Of a stretch of DNA of 64,000 nucleotides, positions 14,601-19,850 are shown piece by piece; position 1 is the first letter of the stretch, and every line of letters starts with the position of its first letter. Under the pieces are notes generated by a model that was not told the origin of the DNA, ran no database searches, and worked only from the letters and a program-made list of their open reading frames with translations. Source of the DNA: Paraspadella gotoi (lineage: Eukaryota; Animalia; Chaetognatha); contig JBJCIZ010000744.1 of the NCBI GenBank assembly GCA_051294375.1, positions 1,726,262-1,790,261 on the forward strand. Direction: 5' to 3'. The translations under genes and the position numbers were made by a program.

Positions 14601-17600
14601 TTGTAGGTTAATCATACCGACGCAATTTTGAATACAAGTCTTTATTATTATTATTATTAATTTCTTTTATTGTTTGTGTAGATCTAAATGAGTCAGAGAT
14701 TACTAACAATATTAATTGGCAGATAATAGGAAAAAAATGTTAACCCTGTGATAAACGTGAGATTGATAACCAGAAACGAGAGCGAGAGAGAGCGAGTACC
14801 GAGTAGCCGGCTTCCCTGGCGACCACTAGGTAGAGTGGCCAACTGAGCTCAACCCGCGAAACTGTTTTTGCCACCATTGGTTTATAAGACAAATTGTCTA
14901 ACCAATGTAGGGAATGTACGAGCACTCGTCGAGCAGTTATTAATACTTAGAGGATTTAACCGTTAACAAGGTTGCTTAATGCTTAAATATACGTAATTCA
15001 ATTGATCTTGAGCAAAAGTGATTAGTTATAATTTCCGCGACAATATTGATCAACGTTTATTTCGTCGTTGACTCCGAAATCTTTAACGAATAAAGTTTCG
15101 TAGGTACATTCAAAGTGTATTAAAATTATGATAGTTTTCAAGGTATAACTGTTAAATGTTGATTCCAAACTTTAACTTCACCCTAGTAGTACGGATACTA
15201 TATGTCGCGTACGTTCAATTGACGTTTTCTCTCGGATTTGTTAAAAATGGATACTTTCATACTCGATGATGGCTTTCAAGAGGTTTTGAGGCGACTTAAC
15301 CTAGGCTAGGCCTTAGAGGAAAAGCAAGTTTATTGTAACTATTTCGTGCCAGTCGAGTAAAGTCGCCTCAGTTTTCTATATATATATATTTAATTTTTTA
15401 TTATTATTATTTCTAAGCTTTTTCTAAGCTTTTTCTATATCTCCATTTCATTCCCCCTCAAACTCAGACGACTTCGGTTGGTCCGCCCTTCACGTCGCCG
15501 CCGCCGCCGCCCGCCTCAGCGTCGTCCGCCTTCTCCTCGACGCCGGCGCCGACCCGGACGCGGCCACGCCCACCGGCGCTACCGCGGCGTCGTTGGCCGG
15601 CGCCGGCAGCGAAGTCGCTGCTGTCGTTGGTAGTTGGAGGAGGAGGAAGAGGAGGAGAGGAGATTCGAGGGAGGAGGTAAAAAAAAAATTGAGAGGAAGA
15701 GAAAGGAAATAGAGAAAGAGGTGAAGAGACAAAATAAATGTTATATGTTAATGATAGAATAATAATAATGATAAGAAGCAGTCTCTCAGCTTTGGAACAG
15801 GCTATAACACCGTATTACAGGCGGATTAAGGGCCCCGTTCCTCTTAACTCACCAATGACCTCTGTGAACGGGGTGGTGGATTTTGAGCCACCGGCGAGGC
15901 TTCATTTTACATTCTCCGACTAGTGTTTGGGGTGTTTTAGGGTTATGGGTATTTTAGGGTTAAAGTGTGGTTAGCGTTTGGGGCGGTGAAGTTTAAGGTA
16001 AGTTACATAACAATGTTTATAATTCTTTTTAGTTATACAAGTTTATATATTGACAATGTATAGCAATTTTATCATCGTTAATCATAAAAAGCGAAAATCC
16101 TATTCGGCGAATTTTAAATTTTACCAGCTTGACTGTTCTCTATTCTTAAATTTTACCAGCTTGACTGTTCTCTATTCTTAAATTTCACCAGCTTGACTGT
16201 TCTCTATTCTTACTTAATCACCTCCCGCGTTCACGAAGCTTCACATCTCCCTCGCTCGAGACTAAATACCCCACACCCCGCCCCTCTCCCCACTGCACCC
16301 GCCTTCAGAAACACCCCTCCACCACCCTTACCCACAACGATCCTTCGACGAGCGACTTCTGCGGCGACTGCGACGCCGCCTTCGAAGACGCCGCCCACCC
16401 CCAATCCGTCGCGCACCTCTTGAACGCCGCCTCGTCTACCGGCGTCACGGATCCGGCGCCGGGAAATCTCGAGGGCGCCGTTGAGAATCGAGGGTTCCGT
16501 CTCATGACGAGGATGGGATGGGACGGAGCGAGGGGATTGGGGAAGGACGGCGAGGGACGGAGGTGAGGGGAGAGAGAGAGAGAGTGCTGTGGGAAGAGAA
16601 GAGAAAGAGAAAATACTTTTGCGCCAATCGGTTTTAGAGATAAAGATGTCGATTTTAGTCAATGCATTAATTTCTTAACGAGAAAACGAGTTTGGCAAAG
16701 TTATATATATATCGTCACCCGCACTGCTAATATTTCGACCTACTAATAAAAGACAGGTTTTTGTTGAACCTACCCCCCCCCCAGAGTCAAAAAAGTGCAA
16801 TTAGAAAATATAATTTTAGTTTGTGACTCTTGTCTATTAACCCATTCACGGCGACATTCCATTTTCGCCACTAATCACAAAATGTCACGATTTCGAAATT
16901 CTTTTGCCAATTCTGAAGACAAAGTAAATGAACTTCATCTTAGTCGTGATAAACTTTGAACTTTCTCAAAAAAACGTTTAACTCTAACGAATTTCAAACG
17001 GAAACCAGTCTCGGCCATTATAATTAAATAATACGGCCTGGATTCTTAAAAAAAGAAAAACCTATTTTCTCATCTCAACTCTTTCAAGTTAAATCTTCTC
17101 ATCCCTTCAATTTCAACTCTTCGAATTCTTGGATCAATCTCGTCGAGTCTCTTCGATCATTTCCAGCTCCTCAGATTTTCATCGAAATTCTCCGCCATTT
17201 TTTTTTTTCATTCGCCATCGTTACAAAGACTCGGATCTGTTTTTAACGCATTCAATTTAACCACTCGTTGCTTAGTATTTTATTCACCATTTAACAAATT
17301 TAATCTCCATTCAATCCAGGAATTTATTTTTTTAACTAACAAAAAACCATCCACGACCGCCATAAAAAAAAAACAAACAAAACAAACAAAACAAACAATG
17401 ACTCTCATGGAAATCTGCGTCGATTCCATCGTCTCGGCGTCGAACGCGATCCGCGGCGGCGCCGACCGTCTCGAACTCTGCTCGGCGTTGGCGTCCGGCG
17501 GCGTCACTCCCTCCGCCGGACTCTTGCGGGCGACGAAGGAATTATTTCCCGGCGTCGTCGTCTTCGTCATGATTCGTCCGCGAGAGGGCGACTTTGTCTA

Positions 17601-19850: not shown

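Follow-up and report, generated by a model that had tools for sequence, protein, structure and literature searches.

Complementary ends of two gene-hosting GPANK1 introns as possible RNA bridges in the chaetognath Paraspadella gotoi

In a 64,000-nt stretch of the P. gotoi genome (hereafter, the window), introns 1 and 3 of a GPANK1 gene each enclose a complete protein-coding gene on the same strand, and their ends are the two best matched among the 36 longer introns that we annotated. We read these ends, tentatively and at a little under an even chance, as weak and probably selected RNA bridges that would help the host splice sites join. The ends would pair and bring the host donor and acceptor together across 3 kb in intron 3 and 9 kb in intron 1. 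Such a bridge would assist joining without locking it in: for the 3′ arm of intron 3 there are several equally good partners, and a donor within CutC, the guest of that intron, can use the same acceptor.

GPANK1 is a four-exon gene on the plus strand, and its joined exons give an open 444-aa frame. Its coding exons and the two host introns are listed below.

5606..6239, plus strand: coding exon 1 (open frame; BLASTP collinearity with homologs across the junction)
6240..15467, plus strand: intron 1, 9,228 nt, host of YY1 (GT..AG; frame kept; an ankyrin repeat is split by the intron)
15468..15676, plus strand: exon 2, ankyrin repeat (Pfam Ank; contig X9-22)
16309..16562, plus strand: exon 3, first part of the G-patch (Pfam G-patch positions 2–27 of 45; contigs)
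16563..19612, plus strand: intron 3, 3,050 nt, host of CutC and a tRNA-Gly (GT..AG joint in X9 and X8 contigs)
19613..19850, plus strand: coding exon 4, remainder of the G-patch (contigs, open frame, homolog alignment)

Splicing was assessed with contigs over positions 15300–20100 of the window. Runs X5, X8 and X9 were treated as RNA because they carry spliced contigs, and the near-identical X8 and X9 data were counted once; the lack of X5 coverage over GPANK1 exons 2–3 was given no weight. In X9 and X8 contigs, a stretch of exactly 3,050 nt is missing at a GT..AG joint, which confirms the splicing of intron 3, and their spacing implies that intron 2 lies at 15677–16308; among all annotated introns, these two and that of CutC are the ones with contig support. 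Contig 22 of X9 runs unbranched from exon 2 to exon 4, and CutC is spliced in X9 as well. In the same contig, 86 letters precede base 15524, matching the 56 remaining bases of exon 2 plus the 30-nt overlap expected at a splice branch; this start supports intron 1 only indirectly. An assembly artefact was rejected for intron 3, since contigs from independent samples together span the stretch between exon 3 and exon 4, CutC included. An exhaustive search identified 22 GPANK1 homologs, while a word search with exon 3 found none. The joined protein is collinear over all three junctions with each of the three full-length homologs aligned out of the 22 (E = 8e-34, 2e-32 and 3e-35), one of which bears the name GPANK1; nematodes and birds are among the named GPANK1 relatives. 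Upstream, SID-1-like, ARPC2 and GPANK1 (1–6239) lie head to tail on one strand, 0.7–0.9 kb apart, and the closest named relative of the first ARPC2 exon is a nematode (68%; the sole named organism among 10 hits). The YY1 start codon immediately follows an AG. Judged from sequence, operon-type or trans-spliced expression of the SID-1-like/ARPC2/GPANK1 region and YY1 is possible.

In both host introns, a complete guest lies inside a spliced intron on the host strand, as established by contigs for intron 3 and by homology for intron 1.

7532..13394, plus strand: YY1 homolog with seven coding exons, guest of intron 1 (452-aa spliced frame; C2H2 fingers; match to the 1ubd YY1 finger chain, E = 4.5e-40)
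17398..18315, plus strand: CutC gene, guest of intron 3, exons 17398–17607 and 17785–18315 (Pfam CutC; spliced contigs in X5, X8 and X9; C-terminus aligns with homologs)
18485..18558, plus strand: tRNA-Gly(GCC) gene inside intron 3 (ARAGORN; Rfam, 46.9 bits; contig 17783–18921)

The tRNA-Gly(GCC) gene sits in the contig downstream of CutC and carries an A at 18522, where most other copies in the runs have a G; a search of the sequence against Rfam returned only tRNA at gathering score. The second zinc finger of YY1 (11778–11993) appears two residues short relative to the aligned fingers, reflecting either a real difference or an assembly error. Within YY1 intron 3, the segment 9253–9550 contains five sites (9253, 9272, 9286, 9317 and 9541) of a pattern that we take to be a YY1-type motif, and 7 of its 17 hits in the 64-kb window fall within 9060–9600. 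Autoregulation of YY1 via its own intron is possible from these motif matches.

The predicted stems are built from four arms.

6241..6274, plus strand: 5′ arm of the predicted intron 1 stem, overlapping the donor site (28-bp duplex; mutual best at 30 and 40 nt)
15437..15466, plus strand: 3′ arm of the predicted intron 1 stem, overlapping the pyrimidine tract and acceptor (duplex energy; mutual best; best-site scan)
16563..16613, plus strand: purine-rich 5′ arm of the predicted intron 3 stem, with the 15-nt core 16598–16612 (exact match, RNAduplex, Watson-Crick score)
19507..19594, plus strand: pyrimidine-rich 3′ arm of the predicted intron 3 stem, with the 15-nt core 19508–19522 (exact match, RNAduplex, Watson-Crick score)

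A first-pass annotation of this DNA had pointed out a 15-nt perfect reverse complement in intron 3, and the match is indeed exact: 16598–16612 is the reverse complement of 19508–19522, and each 15-mer occurs once on the plus strand. It had extended this match to about 45 imperfect base pairs; RNAduplex, applied to the first 70 versus the last 130 nt, gives 48 bp (46 Watson-Crick and 2 G-U; −63.9 kcal/mol) between 16563–16613 and 19507–19594. The gtgggaaga / tcttccccac part of the extension pairs with a 1-nt bulge. The predicted stem ends ~18–50 nt before the acceptor. For intron 1, the idea that the ends pair up to both splice sites when G-U is allowed held for the corrected intron boundaries 6240–15467, with RNAduplex yielding 28 bp (23 Watson-Crick and 5 G-U; −36.1 kcal/mol) flush with both splice sites.

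How far such matching is peculiar to the host introns depends on what introns of this genome generally look like. The null set comprised 44 introns in 7 genes of this window, annotated by hand from frame continuity; the last acceptor of an ICE2-like gene and the gene at 20.4–28.8 kb are provisional parts of it. Exons in the window are GC-rich and introns AT-rich. Among the 36 introns of at least 200 nt, G makes up 35% and C 7% of bases 7–26 after donors, and in bases 4–26 before acceptors C makes up 37% and G 7%. Of 43 introns, 36 have more G than C in the donor flank and 38 have more C than G in the acceptor flank; GGG occurs in the first 40 nt of 24/43 introns and CCC in the last 40 nt of 25/43, with the reverse arrangement seen in 0 and 2. 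Nearly all introns thus have G-rich donor flanks and C-rich acceptor flanks, so that any donor has some affinity for any acceptor. The consensus words GTGAG and CTCAG are themselves partly complementary to each other in sequence. Internal exons show a mirror image of the intron polarity, passing from C-skew to G-skew along their length (28/36, p = 0.0015; introns within 178–40616); co-occurrence of tracts across exons was rejected (p = 0.38).

This polarity is not accompanied by matching between the two ends of an intron across the window. A GGG start and a CCC end coincide in 14 introns against 14.0 expected (43 introns), and complementary tracts co-occur in 6 of 43 against 5.5 expected (Spearman p = 0.52), in a small sample. 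Own ends gain no duplex energy over swapped ends (p = 0.51 with 50 nt and 43 introns; p = 0.64 with 100 nt and 36 introns), and duplexes of at least 20 bp form in 14 of the 36 own exon-flanked constructs and in 112 of the 250 built from randomly swapped ends. Because own pairs equal swapped pairs and the tracts do not co-occur, end-to-end complementarity here is generic; the first-pass annotation had itself cautioned that some matches between low-complexity tracts arise by chance. A window-wide code of cognate ends was rejected on the duplex energies, Watson-Crick scores and window scans. Dinucleotide-shuffle z-scores were not used alone as a null, because shuffling breaks up low-complexity tracts. 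These observations fit a by-product of composition combined with chance, an explanation that we regard as nearly as likely as the bridges: the flanks would be G/GA-rich and C/U-rich for independent reasons, long introns would be strong in both, and a large scan would find a good match somewhere. For the G-runs and C-rich tracts, the likely reasons would be mutational bias or a role as splicing elements bound by proteins.

The rank tests, however, do not sit well with this by-product explanation. We ranked each of the 36 introns of at least 200 nt after a rank-1 composition correction, taking for each pair the best of 7 window settings, one of which (70/130) had been picked after intron 3 was inspected, and comparing with a null of 1,260 swapped pairs handled in the same way. 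Intron 1 came first and intron 3 second of the 36 (adjusted p = 0.009 and 0.017, respectively; Fisher 0.0014). The remaining 34 introns were uniform in the same test (KS p = 0.55). Eight shorter introns were left out, including the 177-nt CutC intron, which led the 40–80-nt windows in an all-intron scan. In constructs with 60 nt of exon on each side, the hosts rank first and third of 36, with 46.7 and 45.5 expected bp, and 45 expected bp are reached by 12 of 250 random swapped constructs. Both hosts therefore fall in roughly the top 5% of the swapped null in two energy-based tests. The earlier proposal had made superior stability of cognate over swapped ends its touchstone; this fails in raw energy and window-wide, and it succeeds for both hosts after correction for composition and window.

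The two introns excel on different metrics and in different windows. The Watson-Crick score of intron 3 (46) is the top among 32 own pairs and is reached by 2 of 992 swapped pairs, and its own match is the best locus for the 5′ arm among 983 window tiles. Perfect runs of at least 15 are found for 1 of the 32 own pairs and for 4 of the 992 swapped ones. Against tract shuffles that keep up to 4-mer content (5,000 at each of four word sizes), intron 3 gives p = 0.0004–0.002, another point against a by-product, albeit one for which a p of about 0.002 will turn up by chance in a scan of many windows. In symmetric windows of 30–80 nt, intron 3 ranks only 9–29 of 39–44 acceptors (29 and 24 at 30 and 40 nt). 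By energy, the ends of intron 1 are each other's best partners in the 30-nt and 40-nt windows (1 of 44 and 1 of 43, both ways), and its Watson-Crick score of 18 is unremarkable, since 317 of the 992 swapped pairs also reach it. When raw energies at 100 nt are compared, the intron 3 acceptor has 5 better partners among 35 other donors, its donor has 2 better partners among 35 other acceptors, and the intron 1 acceptor pairs better with 7 of 35 other donors. With only two hosts, which are also the two longest introns, guest status and length are confounded. The intron at 34870–37064 of an ICE2/NARG2-like gene, which hosts an antisense guest, shows ordinary end matching (adjusted p = 0.23; 3.3 bp). 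That guest is a two-exon gene on the minus strand (~35765–36570) with no Pfam family at threshold.

We also modeled whether the stems would form in longer RNAs. With the intron interior removed, both stems form (24–25 and 26–47 bp). In the ensemble of the whole 3.3-kb exon 3–intron 3 RNA, the host arms share 0.0 expected bp; the 5′ arm is predicted to pair with 17063–17109, and the 3′ arm region 19472–19612 with CutC at 18158–18317. Forcing the 15-bp core into the whole fold costs 17.1 of 1,027 kcal/mol, a difference that, in our judgement, would lie within the error of such folds. The earlier proposal that stems would bring the GPANK1 donor and acceptor together is partly supported by the specificity of the ends in the two rank tests, and the whole-intron fold, which lacks the stem, speaks against it. 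Within 15468–19900, the 5′ arm of intron 3 finds its best site in its own 3′ arm (−63.9 versus −41.1 for the next), and four sites between −63 and −71 are available to the 3′ arm. For intron 1, the own donor is the best site of the 3′ arm (−36.1 versus −28.9), and the 5′ arm has two sites as good as its own partner. Both predicted stems bury donor bases (unpaired 0.10–0.14 versus a median of 0.22).

Natural alleles touch both arms of intron 3. In the DNA run X4, a second allele carries three indels within the 5′ arm, including one that borders the 15-mer; they lower the duplex to −55.7 and the perfect run to 13 against the partner in the window. The X5 allele differs in the 3′ arm by an insertion of 22 nt and minor changes that spare the 15-mer (duplex −61.4). 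Combining the two arm alleles, which are unphased and come from different individuals, gives −51.3 and no visible compensation. A search for orthologous loci by CutC alignment against metagenome contigs returned 80 loci, all with at most 47% identity, and none was used as an ortholog. The erosion of the arms by natural alleles and a full fold without the stem are both in keeping with a by-product of composition.

The X5 contigs revealed a second use of the intron 3 acceptor, involving the following two features.

18220..18225, plus strand: donor in CutC exon 2 joined to the GPANK1 exon 4 acceptor in X5 (GT..AG joint, depth 72.7, short side 29 nt, one contig)
18158..18317, plus strand: purine-rich end of CutC exon 2, predicted to compete for pairing with the host 3′ arm (whole-intron MFE and ensemble)

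The joint between the CutC donor and the host acceptor (intron 18220–19612) was found alongside the unspliced form, and adjacent contigs break exactly there. It shows that the host acceptor is not reserved for the host donor. Splicing of CutC to exon 4 predicts a protein of 305 aa instead of 246 aa, in which the conserved CutC C-terminus is swapped for an acidic tail read from another frame of host exon 4. A transcript initiated at CutC would be without the host 5′ arm in any case. The first-pass annotation had further suggested that the stems explain how same-strand nesting is tolerated. The analysis does not show this: the full-intron model has no intron 3 stem, a guest donor reaches the host acceptor in X5, and, according to the available text of PMC11694760, same and opposite orientations are about equally common among mammalian nested gene pairs.

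Could the 3′ arm act as a switch that picks either the host donor arm or the end of CutC exon 2, sending exon 4 to GPANK1 or to the 305-aa CutC mRNA? The predicted whole-intron pairing of 18158–18317 with 19472–19612 brackets the X5 intron, and the X5 3′ arm allele strengthens the CutC pairing (−96.6 versus −89.4) and makes the host one slightly weaker, a hint that comes from a single run. Nevertheless, we consider this switch very improbable. The joint comes from one contig of one run with a short side of 29 nt and is absent from the unbranched X8/X9 contigs, the Watson-Crick score between CutC and the 3′ arm is only 26, and the spliced form loses the conserved CutC C-terminus. Moreover, read-through from the CutC promoter accounts for the joint without any structure.

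The arms might also be a scar of insertion, that is, decayed terminal inverted repeats of a mobile element that brought in the guests or made the introns. Introner-like, transposon-derived introns have terminal inverted repeats and form multi-copy families with near-identical ends, and the intron 1 match is flush with both intron ends, as such an origin would have it. However, the arms are low-complexity, no arm family of the introner type appears among the 20 largest of 28 repeat families at 1–42000, introns 1 and 3 have no arm sequence in common, and the intron 3 match is offset from its acceptor. In addition, the GPANK1 homolog P0146 (45% identical) and its cluster mate end exactly at the intron 3 position, a hint from sequence that this intron may be older than any recent insertion. 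We therefore hold such a scar to be improbable. Separately, a dispersed intronic repeat occurs in several genes (4028–4147, 11254–11373 and 22947–23066), and nested copies in YY1 intron 4 form an inverted pair (11274–11388/11577–11691); an Rfam twister match at 11284–11326 was below threshold.

The preferred reading, selected bridges, has precedents. In zebrafish, complementary low-complexity tracts were proposed to pair splice sites in (AC)m-(GT)n bridged introns, with AC repeats after the donor and GT before the acceptor, mutation with compensatory rescue, and U2AF2 independence, according to the available text of Lin et al. 2016 (PMC4691745). The GPANK1 introns resemble these in having low-complexity complementary tracts near both ends of a spliceosomal GT-AG intron. 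They differ in that their arms are GA/G versus UC/C, partly cover the splice sites, and pair by prediction. The analogy with fish AC/GT introns that the first-pass annotation had drawn breaks down on co-occurrence, since in this window neither complementary tracts nor GGG and CCC coincide above independence. [quoted passage not shown] Neither host intron carries three of each: intron 3 reaches two and intron 1 reaches one, YY1 intron 2 is the only intron to reach three, and co-enrichment at three plus three is 1 observed against 1.1 expected in the window.

[quoted passage not shown] As with PCCRs, a stable complementary pair lies near both splice sites in introns 3 and 1, and these long-range intronic pairs enclose the starts and ends of other transcripts. 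PCCRs are defined by cross-species conservation, whereas the GPANK1 pairs come from one invertebrate genome and their loops would hold whole multi-exon protein-coding genes. Work on host and nested gene pairs (PMC11694760; PMC3192792, which treats interference by nested genes) likewise concerns whole genes in introns in the same orientation, and terminal stems are not invoked in the available text of either source. Our literature search turned up no publication in which terminal stems flank protein-coding guests on the host strand of an invertebrate gene, with most subscription journals outside its coverage. The GPANK1 case is a variant of known intron-bridging stems.

If the ends are indeed selected bridges, the generic G/C polarity would have come first, and the two longest introns would then have gained extra sequence-specific matching. 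That gain would fall on the introns that need to skip the splice and polyadenylation sites of a same-strand guest. A broader version, which we think unlikely, is that a lineage-wide generic G/C zipper has been sharpened into specific stems on same-strand host introns, and that at intron 3 the last exon of the guest competes, making an allele-sensitive switch that assigns the terminal exon.

The way in which a host pre-mRNA bypasses the splicing and polyadenylation signals of a guest on its own strand is an unsettled question. If the by-product explanation is true, the locus is an ordinary nested-gene arrangement. Looping-out is already a hypothesis for human genes, and GPANK1 adds two compact, testable cases; for the 3-kb intron 3, natural arm alleles and a detectable mis-joining product are at hand as a read-out. 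The G-rich/C-rich polarity of introns across the window merits a genome-wide look.
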